Virus genome (UHGV): UHGV-0293664
Direction: 5' to 3' (one strand)
DNA from: a virus
Length of the DNA stretch: 64,000 nt
Shown here: one piece after another, positions 26,695 to 36,336 of the stretch
Numbering within the stretch: the first letter of the stretch is position 1
How the letters are laid out: each line of letters begins with the position of its first letter
Notes under the pieces: generated by a model
What the model was told of the DNA's origin: nothing
The model's database searches: none
What the model saw: the letters and a program-made list of their open reading frames with translations, nothing else
Position numbers and translations under genes: made by a program

Positions 26695-27978
26695 TCATTC
26701 CAGCACCTCCCAAGTGTCTGGGTTAACATTTCGAACGCGGATACCGACAGGGAATTGGTAGTTGTTGTCTTCTGTCCTTGCTTGGTATTTGAAGGTGATA
26801 AACTTGCCGATCATTTCCTGCATCCTGTCATAGCTACGCTCCTCGTGCGTGCCTTTCATCTTCATTTTAACAACAACACCTTCCTTGTCAACACAGATAA
26901 GAACACCTTCATCATTCTTATCTTTCTCAACGTCAATAACCTTCACCTCTGCGTCGTTGAACTTTTTCCATTTCAATGCTTCAGATGTTCGCTGACCATA
27001 CTCATATTTACCACAGAAGTTACGCATAATGGTACCTTCATATCCCTCAGACATAAATATACCAACAGACTCTTCGCACCGATCAACTGTGTATGCAAGC
27101 TCTGCATCAACAACCTTAATATGATCAAGCATCAAAGAAGCAATAGCACCATTTGCCTCCATAAGATCCTTACAGCGCCCAGACTCTGTTTCAGGATCCC
27201 ACCACACCTTATCGCTAGGGATATCGAAAATATGATACTCTAAATCGTAGCTGCAGTACCCTCCGTAACGCAAATCATCACGAACAGGCTCAACATCAAC
27301 AGGAATGTCTACCTTGTTGAAGTTTTTGTATGTTGCTAAACCTGCCTTAATCGCAGCCTGACGGCGTTTTTTATCTGCCTTGTAGTCTTTATCGATCTCG
27401 GCCTGAATTTCTTCCTGTGTGCGCCACCGTTTAGCAAGAGACACTATTTTCTGCAGAGGTAGACCATGAATATAGAGCTCTCCGTCGAGCTGTTTAATCC
27501 CGGTGGTTAGGTGGAAAGAGCGAAGTTGCTCCAGAAGCTTCCCTTGAATAGGGTAGGACTTATTACCACGGGAAATAAATTTAGGCTCACCATTCTGGAA
27601 AACAACAAGTAGACGAAGGCCATCTAACTTACGCAAGATCCAGCAAGGTAATTTAAGTGCCTTGCCACGCTTCAGGTAGTCATGCACCAACATGGGTAGA
27701 AGATCAACACCTTGCTCACAATCTTCCATACTCTCCACGTACCCAAGTCGGACCTGTTTTTCCCACTTACTGATCGCTTCCAGCTCGGCCTGTTGTTCAG
27801 CTGTAGTCTCGTTGGCACGACCTACGTTCTTAGGTGTGCATACCGTCTCTTTGTACTGCAGTTTACCGTCAAGCTTTCCAAACTCTACGATAACCTTACT
27901 ACCATCTGTGAATACTTTCCATTGCTGGTAACTTCCATCTTTATTTAGTGCATAAAGTGTTGTTTTGATTTGATGCAT
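26695..27978 (-). CDS. ATP-dependent DNA ligase
   Basis: Motif I RKLDGLRL (KxDG), 427 aa. Confidence 0.8.
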   Translation of the reverse strand: MHQIKTTLYALNKDGSYQQWKVFTDGSKVIVEFGKLDGKLQYKETVCTPKNVGRANETTAEQQAELEAISKWEKQVRLGYVESMEDCEQGVDLLPMLVHDYLKRGKALKLPCWILRKLDGLRLLVVFQNGEPKFISRGNKSYPIQGKLLEQLRSFHLTTGIKQLDGELYIHGLPLQKIVSLAKRWRTQEEIQAEIDKDYKADKKRRQAAIKAGLATYKNFNKVDIPVDVEPVRDDLRYGGYCSYDLEYHIFDIPSDKVWWDPETESGRCKDLMEANGAIASLMLDHIKVVDAELAYTVDRCEESVGIFMSEGYEGTIMRNFCGKYEYGQRTSEALKWKKFNDAEVKVIDVEKDKNDEGVLICVDKEGVVVKMKMKGTHEERSYDRMQEMIGKFITFKYQARTEDNNYQFPVGIRVRNVNPDTWEVLE

Positions 27979-28572: not shown

Positions 28573-28605
28573 AACAAGTAAAGCCGGGTGATCCCGGCTA
28601 TGTTG

Positions 28606-29319
28606 TTAAATATACTCTGTTACATCCTTGAAGCTTGAAGGCTTCATGATCTTACCTTTACTGTCAAGGAATATGATAACTTTATTACCGTTGTAGAACT
28701 CTTCCTTAGCAACAAAACCTTCATATCGACCATCAAAGCGTCGCTCAAGATCTTTAATCTCCAACTCTACGAGTTGTTCAGCAGGCATATCTGCACTGGC
28801 ACCGTGTGAATACCGTAGATGGTTAATCTTTGCAAACTTGCTGTCATTCGATTTGAGAACCTTACGCATCATCCCGCACACATCGCCGCGAAGCTGGAAC
28901 AGCAAAGCTGTTGACAACTCCGCTAAGCGGTAAGCTGACGCTCTTTGCTTAGGTGTGTTTTTCGCAGCGATCAGGGTATCATAGAACTCACCGATCTTGA
29001 ACTTAAGGCCTCGTGGATTATCAAACAGGCTTGACCACTTTTCGTGATTGTCATTAACAAGATAAGCGGCATAACTTGTGACAACGTGAAGATCGCAGGC
29101 CTCTTTTAGCAGGTGATCTCCACCATCGCCTTTCTCCAGCTCTTCCAAAACTTCATTGAACTCTTCCTCAATGAAGCTAAGCTGTAATTCGAACGGTGTG
29201 TATGATTTTTTCACTTTAGCTGCCACACGGTTCCAGTTTTCCACCCAGTTGGCAGACCAAAGGTAGTTTTCAGGTTGGGACAGTTTTTCCAGGTTGTCAA
29301 TCAATTTGGTATTCAGCAT
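28606..29319 (-). CDS. putative MazG-like nucleotide pyrophosphohydrolase
   Basis: EEEFNEVLEELEKGD...HLLKEACDL resembles the MazG EExxE...D metal-binding helix pair; weak. Confidence 0.35.
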   Translation of the reverse strand: MLNTKLIDNLEKLSQPENYLWSANWVENWNRVAAKVKKSYTPFELQLSFIEEEFNEVLEELEKGDGGDHLLKEACDLHVVTSYAAYLVNDNHEKWSSLFDNPRGLKFKIGEFYDTLIAAKNTPKQRASAYRLAELSTALLFQLRGDVCGMMRKVLKSNDSKFAKINHLRYSHGASADMPAEQLVELEIKDLERRFDGRYEGFVAKEEFYNGNKVIIFLDSKGKIMKPSSFKDVTEYI

Positions 29320-29332
29320 TAAAGGTCTCCTT

Positions 29333-30094
29333 TTAAAGTTCCATAAAGTTTTCTACGATCTCAATGAATGTTTTATCAGAGAAAGCATCGACCGCCCCGT
29401 TAAACCAAACTGGGATGCCGCGATCCTCATATTGGTAAATATCACTACGTGAAATGCCATTCTCCCCCAGCTGCTGTGAGTCGTATTTGTTAACGATCAG
29501 CAGTTTGGTTCCCTTATTGCAGGCAGGGAATAGCTCCCAGTTAAAATTGATAACTGTGTTGGAACACCCTACAAGGATAACCATATCATTACTCGTAAGA
29601 GAAGTCAACAGGTCATACATGTCTGTATACTTCGGAGCTACTTCTCCGAAGAACACCACATTAGGCTTAACCCAGGTATACTTTCCTGCATCTACCTCAG
29701 AGTATCCAATGTCCTTAATGACGTTACTTCCTTCATCGTCCTCATAGACTATTTCTGGCAAATACCCGTGGACATGTAAAATATCTTCATGTTTTACACC
29801 AGCACGCTCCAGCAAATCATCTACATTGGTGGTAAGGTTGATCACACGACCAGACCAGCGGGAATACCACTCAGCGATCCGAAGATGTGCAAGGTTAGGA
29901 TCAACACTGCCCAGAGCTACACGACGTGCATTGTAAAAGTCATGCACCTTATAGTAGTTCTTGGCAAAGGTGTGGATGTTGCACACCTCATCGATGCTGA
30001 AATTCTCCCACATTGCAGTGCTACCAGATCGGAAAGTGGGAATACCAGATTCAGCGCTCAAACCCGCACCGGAGATAATAATAAGTCGTCGCAT
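29333..30094 (-). CDS. Sir2-family (sirtuin-like) protein lacking the zinc ribbon
   Basis: GAGLSAESGIPTFR, TTNVDDLLERAG, LHVHGY (catalytic His), VVFFGE, ILVGCS all match sirtuin motifs; no CxxC pairs. Confidence 0.65.
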   Translation of the reverse strand: MRRLIIISGAGLSAESGIPTFRSGSTAMWENFSIDEVCNIHTFAKNYYKVHDFYNARRVALGSVDPNLAHLRIAEWYSRWSGRVINLTTNVDDLLERAGVKHEDILHVHGYLPEIVYEDDEGSNVIKDIGYSEVDAGKYTWVKPNVVFFGEVAPKYTDMYDLLTSLTSNDMVILVGCSNTVINFNWELFPACNKGTKLLIVNKYDSQQLGENGISRSDIYQYEDRGIPVWFNGAVDAFSDKTFIEIVENFMEL

Positions 30095-30102
30095 AAGTGT
30101 CC

Positions 30103-30453
30103 TCAGTAGATGTTTTGTTTAATATCTATTCCAAACTTTTTAAACGAGTCAGCTGCAAGCATGAATTTACGAGCCGCTGATGGGTTAGAAGTATGCACGA
30201 AAATCTTCACGTTGTCAACTACAGGAGGCTTACCAAATACAAATTTTTCCTCCAACATAGATAGGCAATCGTACCCTTCGAACACCTCTCCAAGGTCGTT
30301 GTCCATGTGCCACTCAGAAACGCGTCTGTAGAGCTTTCTATTATCGTTAATAAAATCCATAAACTCGGAGGAATTCTTTAGCCAAATAGCGTCTGGTAGC
30401 CCATAATTTGACGGATCTCTCAAGTCATCCAGCCACACAATCAACTTCTTCAT
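30103..30453 (-). CDS. hypothetical protein (116 aa)
   Basis: ORF between Sir2 and the ligase-like gene. Confidence 0.4.
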   Translation of the reverse strand: MKKLIVWLDDLRDPSNYGLPDAIWLKNSSEFMDFINDNRKLYRRVSEWHMDNDLGEVFEGYDCLSMLEEKFVFGKPPVVDNVKIFVHTSNPSAARKFMLAADSFKKFGIDIKQNIY

Positions 30454-31406
30454 TGCATATAGTTCTCGTTGTGGAAATAGTAATCAAGTATCTCACGGCG
30501 TTCCTGCTCTAGGAGGCAGTTCCATACATCCTCTGTGTAGTTGTTACGAATGAAGTTTACCATGCCGTAAAACTCTTCGTCAACACGTTTAAAGATATCA
30601 TCATCCCAAATCTTCCAAGCTTTACCTCTCATTACGGCCTTCCGTGCCAGATAGTATGGAGACTTAATCTTCAGCTGCAGATCATAAGGGTAGTAAGGCT
30701 TACGAATCATATACCCTTCACCTCTTGTTTCTGCAGCTAATTCTTTTGCATAACTGAACGGAATTTCACGCACAGTGTGAGGACGTTTTGCACCAAGGTA
30801 TTTGGCAATCCCGTCTAGAGCTGCTTCTGGTAGCATTATTCCAGAATCATTATATCTGCAACCTATCAAATATGCGCCATGATCTTCCTGAACAATATGC
30901 GGATCTGAAGGGTGACAAATTTCAAACATGAATGTCATGTTTTCATTACCCATAACTTTCTTGATAAGATCTAAATTACCACATTGCTCATGGATGGTTT
31001 CCTTTGCGAGGTCACAATATGGAGAATCAAGAGATCCGGTTGTTGAGAACAATAGTTCACCTTTATGAGATGATACCACACCAAGGAATCCGTTCTTTTT
31101 CTCTACCGCCGTCACAAGCTTATTGTCAGGCAGGTTGGTGGAGTTTTCTCCTAAGTTAAACACTTTTGTGAAGGGCCATGCCACAACATTTCCTTCATTA
31201 CCGACAACAATGCCTCGACACTCCAGTAAACGAGGGGACAAATGCCATAGATTGTTGTAAAATACTTTTCTGGCATATTTATAGATCTTTAACCCAAGAT
31301 CTGGGTAATATCTACTGGTTACAAGACCTTTGTCAACTAGGTCGTCTGCATTAAAATACTTCATCATACGTTCCTCATTTGTCATTTTGTTCCACAATCT
31401 TCCCAC
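30450..31406 (-). CDS. putative RNA ligase (covalent nucleotidyltransferase)
   Basis: Motif I EKKNGF (KxNG), motif IV EGYMIRK, motif V LKIKS; distinct from the DNA ligase at 26695. Confidence 0.5.
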   Translation of the reverse strand: MGRLWNKMTNEERMMKYFNADDLVDKGLVTSRYYPDLGLKIYKYARKVFYNNLWHLSPRLLECRGIVVGNEGNVVAWPFTKVFNLGENSTNLPDNKLVTAVEKKNGFLGVVSSHKGELLFSTTGSLDSPYCDLAKETIHEQCGNLDLIKKVMGNENMTFMFEICHPSDPHIVQEDHGAYLIGCRYNDSGIMLPEAALDGIAKYLGAKRPHTVREIPFSYAKELAAETRGEGYMIRKPYYPYDLQLKIKSPYYLARKAVMRGKAWKIWDDDIFKRVDEEFYGMVNFIRNNYTEDVWNCLLEQERREILDYYFHNENYMQ

Positions 31407-31485: not shown

Positions 31486-31896
31486 ATGTCTAAAATGCTA
31501 TATATCGTGCGTGGTCTACCAGGGTCTGGCAAATCAACACTGGCAAATGCGCTATCTTTAGAAGGTCTGTATCCACATTTTGAGAACGACATGTTCTGGT
31601 ACGACGATGATGGAAATTACAACTGGGATGCAAGTAAAGTAACACTTGCAGCAAAATGGTGCAAAGATAACGTAGAAGATATGATGCGTATGGGATACGA
31701 CCGTATCGTGGTAAGTAATACGTTTACAAAAGAAAAATATGTGCAAGAATATATTGACATGGCGATCAGTCATGGGTATAGTTATACCGTGATCGTGGTT
31801 GAAAACCGCCATGGTAATAAAAGCATTCATGATGTTCCAGACAGGGTTGTGGATCGTATGGAACGCCAGCTTAAAAACTGCATTAAACTTAAATGA
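31486..31896 (+). CDS. polynucleotide 5'-kinase-like P-loop protein
   Basis: GLPGSGKSTLANAL P-loop and VVSNTFT resemble the T4 Pnk kinase domain; start placed at the SD-preceded ATG (31486), not the longer track ORF. Confidence 0.55.
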   Translation: MSKMLYIVRGLPGSGKSTLANALSLEGLYPHFENDMFWYDDDGNYNWDASKVTLAAKWCKDNVEDMMRMGYDRIVVSNTFTKEKYVQEYIDMAISHGYSYTVIVVENRHGNKSIHDVPDRVVDRMERQLKNCIKLK

Positions 31897-31903
31897 GGAA
31901 TGT

Positions 31904-32458
31904 ATGAAATACTTTGTAACAAGCGACACACACTTTCTCCACCAGCGGGTCATGGAGTTCGACTCATGTCAAAAACACAGATCTCAGTATGATCACAATC
32001 TTGACAGTATGAATGCGGGAATCATCACCAAGTGGAACTCTGTTGTGTCACCTGCAGACACTGTGTTCCACTTGGGAGATATTGCGTGCACTAATGATAA
32101 GAATATCAACAACTTACTTCCAGATATTCTAAATATGTTGAACGGACATATTATTCTTGTTCGTGGCAACCATGACACAAGGACGACTGTCAGAATTATG
32201 AAAGAGTTCGGTCATGAGGTTGTAGATTATTACGAGCTTCGCCACAACAAGAATTTGATCTGTATGAGCCATTACCAGTTTGCAAAGTGGAACAGAAAGC
32301 CTCACGGATCAGTCCAACTGTTCGGTCATGCTCACGGAACCACACAGCAGTTGTTTGGCAGGCAGTTTGATGTCGGTTGGGATGTGTGGGGGAGACTCTT
32401 ACCATTAGAAGAGGCATACCGTATTGCAATGAGTCTTGCTATTGACAGCGGGGAGTAA
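31904..32458 (+). CDS. calcineurin-like metallophosphoesterase
   Basis: SDTHF, HLGDIACTND, VRGNHD binuclear-metal motifs; start placed at ATG 31904. Confidence 0.6.
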   Translation: MKYFVTSDTHFLHQRVMEFDSCQKHRSQYDHNLDSMNAGIITKWNSVVSPADTVFHLGDIACTNDKNINNLLPDILNMLNGHIILVRGNHDTRTTVRIMKEFGHEVVDYYELRHNKNLICMSHYQFAKWNRKPHGSVQLFGHAHGTTQQLFGRQFDVGWDVWGRLLPLEEAYRIAMSLAIDSGE

Positions 32459-35396: not shown

Positions 35397-35471
35397 GCCC
35401 TGTTAGCTTAGTGGATAAAGCAGCGGCCTTCTAAGCCGTTGACACTGGTTCGAGTCCAGTACGGGGTGCCA
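35397..35471 (+). tRNA. tRNA-Arg (anticodon UCU)
   Basis: Hand-folded cloverleaf: acceptor GCCCTGT/ACGGGGT (two G-U), D-stem GCTT/AAGC, anticodon loop CTTCTAA, T-arm ACTGG-TTCGAGT-CCAGT, CCA encoded. Confidence 0.65.
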
Positions 35472-35601
35472 AGTTCTTTTTAATGTAGCTTACTTTAGCA
35501 GAGTAAATCTTCGGCAAGTGGCGGTAACCACTTTACCGATACCTCATAGTTAGTGGTGAGAACACTAGCTATTTTAAAAAGAATTTAAATATTAGTATTT
35601 A

Positions 35602-35689
35602 GGTGAGTTAATTCCGTAGGGGTAGCGGGGCAGACTGTAAATCTGTTATCATTGCGATTCGGGTGGTTCGACTCCATCACTCACCACCA
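35602..35689 (+). tRNA. tRNA-Tyr (anticodon GUA), long variable arm
   Basis: Acceptor GGTGAGT/ACTCACC, anticodon arm GCAGA-CTGTAAA-TCTGT, long variable arm, T-loop TTCGACT, CCA encoded. Confidence 0.65.
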
Positions 35690-35803
35690 AATTTATATTT
35701 TTAAATGCATAAATCATACAGATAATGGCATTGATATTTATCGTCGTTTATACTAGTCACTAACTGCTCGAAAATCAGTGTCATTATCAGTATTGTTTAT
35801 AAA

Positions 35804-35894
35804 AGAGGGTAGGGAGCAATGGTGCTCAAGCGGTCTTGAAAACCGTCCCGTTGAGGATGACTCGATGATGGTTCGATTCCATTATCCTCTGCCA
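35804..35894 (+). tRNA. tRNA-Ser (anticodon UGA), class II
   Basis: Acceptor AGAGGGT/ATCCTCT, anticodon loop CTTGAAA, long variable arm, T-loop TTCGATT, CCA encoded. Confidence 0.6.
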
Positions 35895-35992
35895 TATTGT
35901 TGACCTTGTAATTAAGCGAAAGCCGGAAGCAGAACCGGATTATCAAATGTTACAGTCGTCATCGCCGACTAGCAACATGGTCAACATACTGA

Positions 35993-36089
35993 GCTAGGTA
36001 AGCCCTTTGGCAAGGGCGAGGATTTTTAATCCTGAAAATAGACGAGGTAGTCGTTGAATACATAGGTGGTTCGATTCCATCACCTAGCA
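35993..36089 (+). tRNA. atypical tRNA-like gene (97 nt; anticodon uncertain, possibly UUU)
   Basis: Perfect 7-bp acceptor GCTAGGT/ACCTAGC, D-stem GCCC/GGGC, T-arm GGTGG-TTCGATT-CCATC, but only a 4-bp anticodon stem AGGA/TCCT (loop TTTTTAA), a 30-nt extra region and no full CCA. Confidence 0.45.
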
Positions 36090-36096
36090 CCTTTTT

Positions 36097-36172
36097 GCTG
36101 ATGTAGCACAATTGGTAGTGCAATTGATTTGTAATCAATAGGTTGCAGGTTCGAGTCCTGCTATCAGCACCA
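36097..36172 (+). tRNA. tRNA-Thr (anticodon UGU)
   Basis: Acceptor GCTGATG/TATCAGC, D-stem GCAC/GTGC, anticodon arm ATTGA-TTTGTAA-TCAAT, T-arm GCAGG-TTCGAGT-CCTGC, CCA. Confidence 0.7.
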
Positions 36173-36173
36173 T

Positions 36174-36248
36174 GGCCCTGTAGCTGGAAGGTTCAAGCAA
36201 GCGACTCATAATCGCCAGACGGTGGTTCAATTCCACCCAGGGCCACCA
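36174..36248 (+). tRNA. tRNA-Met (anticodon CAU; initiator, elongator or Ile2 not distinguishable)
   Basis: Acceptor GGCCCTG/CAGGGCC, anticodon loop CTCATAA, T-arm GGTGG-TTCAATT-CCACC, CCA. Confidence 0.65.
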
Positions 36249-36259
36249 AATAATAAATA

Positions 36260-36336
36260 CTCCGCGTAGCTCAGCTTGGTAGAGCGCCTGATTTGGGATC
36301 AGGAGGTCGAGTGTTCGAATCACTCCGTGGAGACCA
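36260..36336 (+). tRNA. tRNA-Pro (anticodon UGG)
   Basis: Acceptor CTCCGCG/CGTGGAG, D-arm GCTC-AGCTTGGTA-GAGC, anticodon arm CCTGA-TTTGGGA-TCAGG, T-arm GAGTG-TTCGAAT-CACTC, CCA. Confidence 0.7.

Follow-up and report, generated by a model that had tools for sequence, protein, structure and literature searches.

A zinc-free sirtuin among the RNA-repair genes of a Vequintavirus phage: a tentative NAD+-using member of an RNA end-healing and sealing module

Here we describe a gene of the sirtuin (Sir2) family in a 64,000-nucleotide stretch of the UHGV virus genome UHGV-0293664, the whole of which is called the window below. Its product is a zinc-free sirtuin that keeps the catalytic residues of the family and is predicted to keep its fold, and the gene lies in a cluster of phage RNA-repair genes. 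We tentatively read the protein as a competent, class-III-derived sirtuin whose structural zinc has been lost and which may serve as the NAD+ (nicotinamide adenine dinucleotide)-using member of a phage RNA (tRNA) end-healing and sealing module. The gene, its family, its zinc-free finger and the neighbourhood-based prediction are already published or annotated. New here are the placement of the fold relative to the Sir2 proteins of bacterial defence, the mapping of the zinc loss, the correlation of that loss with a Gln-to-Thr replacement in the active site, additional genomic contexts, and the evidence that counts against the prediction.

The window had earlier been read from its sequence alone, and this original prediction held that all core sirtuin motifs are present and that the cysteines of the zinc ribbon are absent. 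Both statements are confirmed. The translation reads GAGLSAESGIPTFR at residues 9-22, TTNVDDL at 88-94, HG at 109-110 and VVFFGE at 146-151, with the key residues falling at GAGxS (9-13), F21/R22, Y54-x-x-R57, T89-N90-V91-D92, H109 and FGE (149-151). The Pfam model PF02146 (SIR2) matches the open reading frame (ORF) far above chance (E = 5.5e-27; 95.3 bits, cut-off 24) and is covered over positions 1-178 of its 180; PHROG 2162 'Sir2' matches it at 1.9e-108. The protein contains three cysteines (C38, C177 and C192), none of which lies between H109 and P144, and the four-cysteine CxxC...CxxC zinc site is absent. When aligned to E. coli CobB, the zinc ligand C155 corresponds to Y117, and C174, C176 and C177 fall in a 7-column deletion; set against CobB together with zinc-bearing relatives, the protein has Y117 and D120 in place of the first CxxC and lacks the second through a deletion. 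The zinc-ligand columns of a 60-sequence family alignment are occupied by V, Y, I or T and by E, A, S or N, with no conserved Cys.

An AlphaFold2 model built from 60 homologues has a mean predicted local distance difference test score (pLDDT) of 90.7 and a predicted TM score (pTM) of 0.89. It has the two-domain sirtuin fold, with a Rossmann domain and a small domain that carries a three-stranded ribbon. The ribbon strands are predicted at residues 110-118, 124-128 and 142-146, where the mean pLDDT of 10-residue blocks is 94-97. Thus, according to the model, the three-stranded zinc ribbon is retained and its metal ligands are lost.

The original prediction likened the protein to the Sir2 NADases that form modules of bacterial defence systems, and this likeness finds no support. 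Such proteins (ThsA, DSR2, SIR2-HerA, KomC and the SIR2 of Avs5) do have in common with the phage protein a Rossmann-type Sir2 core, NAD+ as substrate and the lack of a zinc site. However, defence Sir2s have no ribbon module at all. With the phage sirtuin the Pfam model of the defence type, SIR2_2 (PF13289), reaches 13.9 bits, short of its cut-off of 24.5, and PADLOC gives no defence-Sir2 match, only a partial 13-bit match to an unrelated candidate model. The sensors and partners of defence Sir2s (SLOG, HerA, pAgo or a large C-terminal domain) are neither fused to this 253-residue single-domain protein nor found in its operon. By sequence, the best match in the PDB is SIRT5 (4.8e-21), followed by E. 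coli CobB (8.2e-21), and a Foldseek search of the PDB with the model returns CobB-peptide complexes first (E 2.5e-18, TM 0.75-0.84) and then SIRT5, Sir2-Af1 and SIRT2. The structure comparison value is highest for Sir2-Af1 (22.3) and PfSir2A (20.2), intermediate for SIRT2, Hst2, SIRT1 and SIRT4 (18.5-18.1) and for SirTM (15.5), and lower for the defence proteins PsSIR2 (14.0), HerA-Sir2 (12.4), KomC (12.1), ThsA (11.9) and Avs5 (9.7). Between ThsA or DSR and CobB, the phage protein therefore falls on the CobB side. It is also distinct from SirTM, since no Macro domain is fused or adjacent and the class-M sequence features are missing. Modelled in this way, the phage protein is a CobB-like sirtuin with the ribbon kept and the ligands lost, and not a defence-type Sir2.

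Being CobB-like does not make the protein a CobB orthologue, because all curated NCBIfam deacylase models score at no more than half of their cut-offs (best 121.4 bits against 243 for NF001753, and 102.5 against 320 for NF040867). Thus neither an intact zinc site nor clear orthology to CobB, the two findings named beforehand as contradicting the original prediction, was obtained. The phage protein further differs from the class III/U deacylases CobB, SIRT5 and Sir2-Af1 in having TTNVD in place of TQNID, GCSN in place of GTS and VIN in place of VYP, as well as in lacking zinc ligands, in being phage-encoded and in lying in an RNA-repair cluster.

Much of the CobB active site is nevertheless recognizable in the phage protein. 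Residues F60/R61, A76, Y92/R95, Q129, N130, I131, D132, H147, V187, F190 and V219-Y220-P221 of CobB correspond to F21/R22, C38, Y54/R57, T89, N90, V91, D92, H109, V146, F149 and V181-I182-N183, respectively. Among 60 relatives F21, R22, C38, Y54, R57, R58, T89, N90, V91, D92, H109, F148, F149, E151, S178, V181 and I182 are invariant, GAGxS (G9-A10-G11-x-S13) and F149-G150-E151 are invariant or nearly so, and the catalytic N/D/H residues are retained in 136 of 141 representatives. Given this invariance, the phage sirtuin looks fully active. The class-III triad, which consists of a small residue at the position of CobB A76 or SIRT5 A86 together with YxxR, is present as C38, Y54 and R57 in all 60 members, and the stretch FYNARR is the same as in CobB. 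In SIRT5 and CobB the YxxR pocket binds the carboxylate of succinyl- or malonyl-lysine. C38 was considered as a phage-specific change in the active site and was rejected, as Cys also occupies this position in zinc-bearing relatives that retain the Gln.

The Gln of the TQN(I/V)D motif is replaced by Thr89 in 60 of 60 family members. This replacement is tied to the loss of zinc: among the 141 full-length representatives closest to the query, 76 combine Gln with a zinc site and 36 combine Thr without one, as compared to 10 with Thr and zinc and 8 with Gln and no zinc (Fisher p = 1.8e-15). The closest non-phage relatives are zinc-bearing cellular sirtuins. Those of the Gln type have DIGY and KPN motifs in common with the phage family, and one of them is encoded on a Mollicutes-like chromosome beside a lipoate-protein ligase. 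From the existence of such cellular relatives it follows that the phage clade descends from cellular zinc-bearing sirtuins, with zinc loss and the Gln-to-Thr change as derived traits of the clade.

The genomic setting of the gene is that of RNA repair (Table 1). The order of genes on the minus strand is Rnl1 ligase, cREC, sirtuin and MazG-like gene; the first two overlap by 4 nt, and the next two junctions are spaced by 8 nt and 13 nt. A Shine-Dalgarno sequence, GAGGA, lies 6 nt upstream of the sirtuin ATG and overlaps the stop codon of cREC, and the sirtuin is translationally coupled within the unit. The Rnl1 gene has a GTG start at 31406, and its annotated relatives start slightly further downstream. 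The MazG-like protein has no match in sequence searches of Pfam, NCBIfam or the PDB, and its assignment rests on PHROG 671 together with an acidic motif; Iyer et al. 2022 (PMC9503650) likewise assign the gene at this place in the cluster to the MazG superfamily. A terminator-like hairpin directly 3' of the MazG-like stop codon probably marks the end of the unit. This hairpin (AGCCGGG-TGAT-CCCGGCT), which separates the MazG-like gene from the small ORFs that come next, is palindromic and is predicted as terminator-like on both strands. Iyer et al. 2022 (PMC9503650) described the same gene with the same six components as their type-2 neighbourhood ('Escherichia phage V5 / Proteus phage Mydo'), of which they name Escherichia phage V5 as prototype, and the locus belongs to that type in that all five partners lie at most 2.4 kb from the sirtuin.

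Table 1. Features of the sirtuin locus in the window (aa, amino acids)
Feature	Position	Strand	Evidence and remarks
ATP-dependent DNA ligase	26695..27978	(-)	PF01068/PF14743; 1.4 kb downstream
Terminator-like GC-rich hairpin	28582..28599	(-)	7 bp stem, 6 GC pairs; consensus scan, pattern match only
MazG-like nucleotide pyrophosphohydrolase	28606..29319	(-)	237 aa; phrog_671 4.3e-22; acidic motif EEEFNEVLEELEKGD
Zinc-free sirtuin (Sir2 family)	29333..30094	(-)	253-aa ORF, ATG start
Former zinc-ribbon module of the sirtuin, codons 110-144	29662..29767	(-)	three predicted beta-strands, without cysteine
cREC (cyclic-phosphate-processing receiver-like)	30103..30453	(-)	116 aa; PF20274 cREC_REC 1.8e-14; phrog_1479
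T4 Rnl1-type RNA ligase	30450..31406	(-)	first gene of the unit; PF09511 RNA_lig_T4_1 7.8e-15; TIGR02308 1.2e-09; 'RNA ligase' in phage JohannBauhin
P-loop polynucleotide-kinase-like protein	31486..31896	(+)	GLPGSGKST; divergent from the unit; PF13671 AAA_33 4.7e-10; 'polynucleotide kinase' in JohannBauhin
Calcineurin-like metallophosphoesterase	31904..32458	(+)	DxH, GD, GNHD; directly after the kinase; PF12850/PF00149; annotated 'putative phosphoesterase'

To see how far this setting extends, we compared the sirtuin neighbourhoods of 65 loci from 26 Sir2 lineages (75% identity groups). In six myovirus lineages, whose sirtuins are 44-57% identical to the query, the phosphoesterase, Rnl, kinase, Sir2, DNA ligase and MazG-like genes are kept together in rearranged order, and cREC was detected in 3 of the six. 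The metallophosphoesterase remains in the cluster in 8 Sir2 lineages and the DNA ligase remains next to it in 7. T5-like phages have T5.104 after the sirtuin and then a HAD_SAK_2 'Swiss-army-knife RNA repair' phosphatase (PF18143, 1.8e-20), which reproduces the type-3 context of Iyer et al. 2022. Additional contexts come from divergent zinc-less members of the family. For example, a 607-kb jumbo contig has an Rnl1 ligase 1.2 kb upstream of a zinc-less sirtuin, a T4-like contig has RlaP, Sir2 and NADAR in this order, and single contigs have the sirtuin overlapping PTH2 (P0133), SmpB 0.65 kb upstream (P0126), or cREC and Metallophos genes nearby (P0123). In a marine phage the sirtuin is overlapped by a gene for a NadR-like nicotinamide mononucleotide adenylyltransferase/kinase, with HAD_SAK_2 2.3 kb away; this overlap suggests that NAD+ synthesis and consumption are coupled in this phage. 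Within 7.5 kb of the sirtuin, genes of NAD+ salvage (NAPRTase/NAMPT and phosphoribosyl pyrophosphate (PRPP) synthetase) recur as well, as does NADAR.

A census of Pfam families, using one locus for each of 32 lineages, compared 128 ORFs of at least 100 residues located within 1.8 kb of the sirtuin with 128 located at 4.5-7.5 kb. The near set contains RNA_lig_T4_1 five times, HAD_SAK_2 three times and cREC twice (10 of 128), in addition to four to five AAA_33/AAA_18 kinases, four DNA ligases and single instances of SmpB, PTH2, NADAR and NAMPT. In the far set Rnl, HAD_SAK_2 and cREC were found in 0 of 128 by jackhmmer, with at most one of each among the Pfam matches listed. The difference (Fisher p = 0.0016, worst case 0.084) is indicative only, as the census was built on naive longest-ORF calls, related lineages and the best 25 families. 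A theme of RNA repair and translation rescue is thus recurrent in unrelated phage groups, but it is not universal. The expectation that every carrier links its sirtuin to RNA-repair genes failed for the T5-like phages, Stephanstirmvirinae, Moazamivirus and contig P0146, where a zinc-less sirtuin has a cellular-looking context.

Iyer et al. 2022 (PMC9503650) proposed on computational grounds that this sirtuin clade removes a 2'-phosphate from RNA in the manner of KptA/Tpt1, with its partners opening cyclic phosphates or degrading ADP-ribose>P. The proposed functional analogue Tpt1/KptA consumes NAD+ by the same two-step logic (PMC11417386) and acts at the same point of the pathway, in the company of an RNA ligase, a cyclic phosphodiesterase and a kinase (PMC9503650; PMC11417386). 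Following this proposal, we infer that after cleavage of a tRNA by a host anticodon nuclease, the 2',3'-cyclic end would be opened, the 5' end would be phosphorylated and the ligase would seal the break (after Iyer et al. 2022). The sirtuin could then remove the residual 2'-phosphate with NAD+, using the two-step chemistry common to sirtuins and Tpt1/KptA. In the first step an oxygen of the substrate would attack C1'' of NAD+ with release of nicotinamide, and in the second the 2''-OH of ADP-ribose, activated via H109, would attack the transferred group. The by-product may be broken down by cREC and the MazG-like pyrophosphatase. We add the suggestion that the invariant Y54/R57 anion pocket, which is the succinyl carboxylate site in SIRT5 and CobB, could accommodate an adjacent phosphate. 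It is possible, if doubtful, that the zinc-free TTNVD clade of phage sirtuins is in this specific sense an RNA 2'-phosphotransferase non-homologous to Tpt1/KptA, one that finishes the repair of nuclease-cut tRNAs, re-uses its anion pocket for phosphate and leaves the ADP-ribose cyclic-phosphate product to be cleared by cREC and MazG/Nudix enzymes.

Several observations weigh against a role of the sirtuin in RNA repair. Unlike Tpt1/KptA, to which it shows no fold or family homology (sirtuin families and structures are all that match), the phage protein is acidic, it has retained a tunnel of the lysine type, and its RNA activity is putative. The residues that line the acyl-lysine tunnel of CobB (V187, F190, V219 and Y220) are kept as invariant V146, F149, V181 and I182, and a hydrophobic tunnel of this kind would suit a lysine side chain more than a nucleotide. 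The isoelectric point (pI) is 4.8 for the phage sirtuin and has a median of 5.1 in the family (range 4.6-6.1), which is unusual in an RNA-binding enzyme and more natural for a lysine deacylase. All characterised enzymes this near in fold are lysine deacylases. In the T4-type Pnkp/Rnl1 pathway, moreover, a kinase, a metallophosphoesterase and a ligase could finish repair without any 2'-phosphate arising. The synteny among myovirus lineages is not independent evidence, as these lineages have a common ancestry. No Rnl1 homologue was detected in the T5-like phages, the largest group of carriers, and the Rnl1 homologues present in 1,188 phage records were not found in T5-like or Salmonella phages, which account for most of the sirtuin carriers. 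The Stephanstirmvirinae encode Rnl-cREC ~32 kb away from the sirtuin, which is flanked by an HNH endonuclease and genes of unknown function, and in Moazamivirus a DNA methyltransferase is located upstream. Finally, a search of the full-text literature returned no published biochemical or genetic test of phage sirtuins, of cREC or of the Sir2 of rV5 or T5, the work found being computational or at the transcript level.

Some of these same observations would be expected of an ordinary NAD+-dependent lysine deacylase of the CobB/SIRT5 type, which would probably favour acidic acyl groups such as succinyl or malonyl and perhaps also acetyl or lipoyl, and with which the phage would reset the acylation of its own proteins or those of the host. 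It might act on acetyl-CoA synthetase (Skliros et al. 2016), on the translation apparatus or, more speculatively, on the catalytic lysines of the neighbouring ligases. SIRT5 and CobB lead both the PDB sequence matches and the Foldseek matches, the desuccinylase triad and FYNARR are conserved, the tunnel residues are invariant and the acidic pI is like that of CobB. A homologue in Vibrio phages is transcribed during infection and has been argued to act as a deacetylase (Skliros et al. 2016, PMC5107563). On the other hand, the protein scores far under every curated CobB model, the near-universal Gln of the active site has become an invariant Thr, and the hosts have a CobB already. The recurrent neighbours in RNA repair, tRNA rescue and ADP-ribose processing would also be a coincidence unless there are protein substrates in those pathways. 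We regard such a deacylase as a serious alternative, if a somewhat less likely one; if true, it would mean that a virulent phage rewrites host or phage protein acylation.

An NADase or ADP-ribosylating effector of host takeover or counter-defence was the function first suggested for the gene. Such an effector could modify proteins or nucleic acids or blunt NAD+-based immunity, by analogy with the zinc-less Sir2 domains of ThsA, DSR and SIR2-HerA. The missing zinc ligands agree with this idea, as does the presence of NADAR, which processes ADP-ribose adducts, next to the sirtuin in one T4-like contig; the catalytic Asn and His are common to NADase and deacylase sirtuins and do not discriminate between them. 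The idea is improbable, given that the protein shows no signal of homology to the defence Sir2 families, that the ribbon fold is kept, and that it is a single domain with neither a sensor or partner domain nor an adjacent Macro gene. A takeover NADase in particular fits poorly with the NadR-like, NAMPT/NAPRTase and PRPP synthetase genes that lie next to or near the sirtuin in related phages, since these imply that NAD+ is supplied for the sirtuin and not destroyed as a weapon. The suggestion of ADP-ribosyl transfer in counter-defence, while not upheld as first framed, may still hold if it serves to mend tRNAs that host anticodon nucleases have cleaved (Iyer et al. 2022, PMC9503650). An NAD+-using step in RNA end healing and sealing is the reading that we tentatively retain.

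The window derives from a Vequintavirus (rV5-like) phage, as its DNA is 98% identical to that of Vequintavirus genomes. Vequintavirus phages are virulent, and on this identity the earlier description of the gene as belonging to a lytic phage holds. The sirtuin gene is 97-98% identical at the DNA level in 119 phage records, nearly all of them from rV5-like E. coli myoviruses, in which it is named 'Sir2-like protein', 'NAD-dependent protein deacetylase of SIR2 family' or 'cobB'; 'deacetylase' is in this case a putative label. Protein searches find the family in 1,013 phage records. Carriers include T5-like siphoviruses (Demerecviridae), myoviruses of the Vequintavirinae, Mydovirus-like and Stephanstirmvirinae groups, Moazamivirus, Vibrio phages and several jumbo phages. 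Large protein collections contain 863 sirtuin clusters at 90% identity and 1,483 representatives at 50% identity (E <= 1e-10). Ten longer homologues of 297-528 residues consist of SIR2 domains plus one WG repeat and include no informative fusion. The Sir2/CobB proteins of Vibrio phages KVP40 and phiSt2 (PMC5107563) belong to the same phage sirtuin family and are ~45% identical to the query over ~80% of the protein. For these proteins Skliros et al. 2016 (PMC5107563) described a viral 'finger' domain with salt bridges in place of the bacterial zinc ligands, listed T5 among the phage genomes that conserve Sir2/CobB, and proposed deacetylation of acetyl-CoA synthetase, tying the gene to phage NAD+ synthesis genes and not to RNA repair.

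Several side observations concern the family and its annotation. In many members, T5-like subgroups and Stephanstirmvirinae among them, the helical portion of the small domain is extended by a variable insertion of ~20-25 residues (columns 50-76 of alignment A1, between residues 46 and 47 of the window protein), which is absent from the rV5-type protein. A full-length member of 279 residues from Klebsiella phage vB_Kpn_3 (P0065), 50% identical, is misannotated at NCBI as 'tail assembly protein'. About 20 unannotated 'Campylobacter phage' records (host C. jejuni), among them GenBank MG065655.1, MG065654.1 and MG065677.1 (H18, H32 and H131), are 93-97% identical to E. coli rV5-like phages over Sir2, cREC and Rnl, and look like mislabelled or contaminant records. 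In Escherichia phage OSYSP (NC_047835.1) the T5.105 homologue (L062, 6985-7491) is a HAD_SAK_2 phosphatase (PF18143, 1.8e-20) that RefSeq names 'Sir2 (NAD-dependent deacetylase)'. PHROG 18062, a model of 92 positions labelled Sir2, matches the C-terminal half of this phosphatase at 1.9e-58 as compared to only E = 0.001 for the true sirtuin. This PHROG is probably mislabelled, spreading a wrong name beside the real Sir2 gene.

Other side observations concern the loci. In the jumbo contig an arginase-family gene (L060, 6818-7720; PF00491, 8.7e-76), unusual for a phage, lies between the Rnl1 ligase and the sirtuin. On two marine contigs (L068, 6719-7888; L069, 1249-2418) the gene for a 389-residue NadR-like protein (CTP_transf_like plus CoaE/AAA_18) overlaps the 3' end of the zinc-less sirtuin. 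In the window the GC skew changes sign at ~31-32 kb, from negative on the left to positive on the right, which matches the point where the Rnl-cREC-Sir2 unit and the kinase and phosphoesterase genes diverge. A tRNA cluster at 35397-36336 (+) lies ~4 kb from the RNA-repair genes. ARAGORN predicts six tRNA genes there: Arg-tct, Ser-tga, Thr-tgt, Met-cat, Pro-tgg and a 99-nt 'tRNA-???' with a 4-base anticodon (35993-36091). Rfam supports five of these six, misses the Ser gene at 35804-35894 and adds a tRNA at 35602-35686. The equivalent region of JohannBauhin is annotated with Arg, Tyr, Lys, Thr and Ile tRNAs.

The rV5-like and T5-like phages are common candidates for therapy, and the sirtuin gene is carried by many genomes of such phages. 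The main question raised by the gene is one of enzyme chemistry, namely whether a sirtuin can act on RNA, and it is posed here by a protein of 253 residues for which a well-folded structure is predicted with high confidence. If the protein does remove a 2'-phosphate from RNA, sirtuins would gain a nucleic-acid class of substrate, with this protein as the first of them to act on RNA. Phages would then have a Tpt1-independent route to complete the repair of tRNA against anticodon-nuclease defences.

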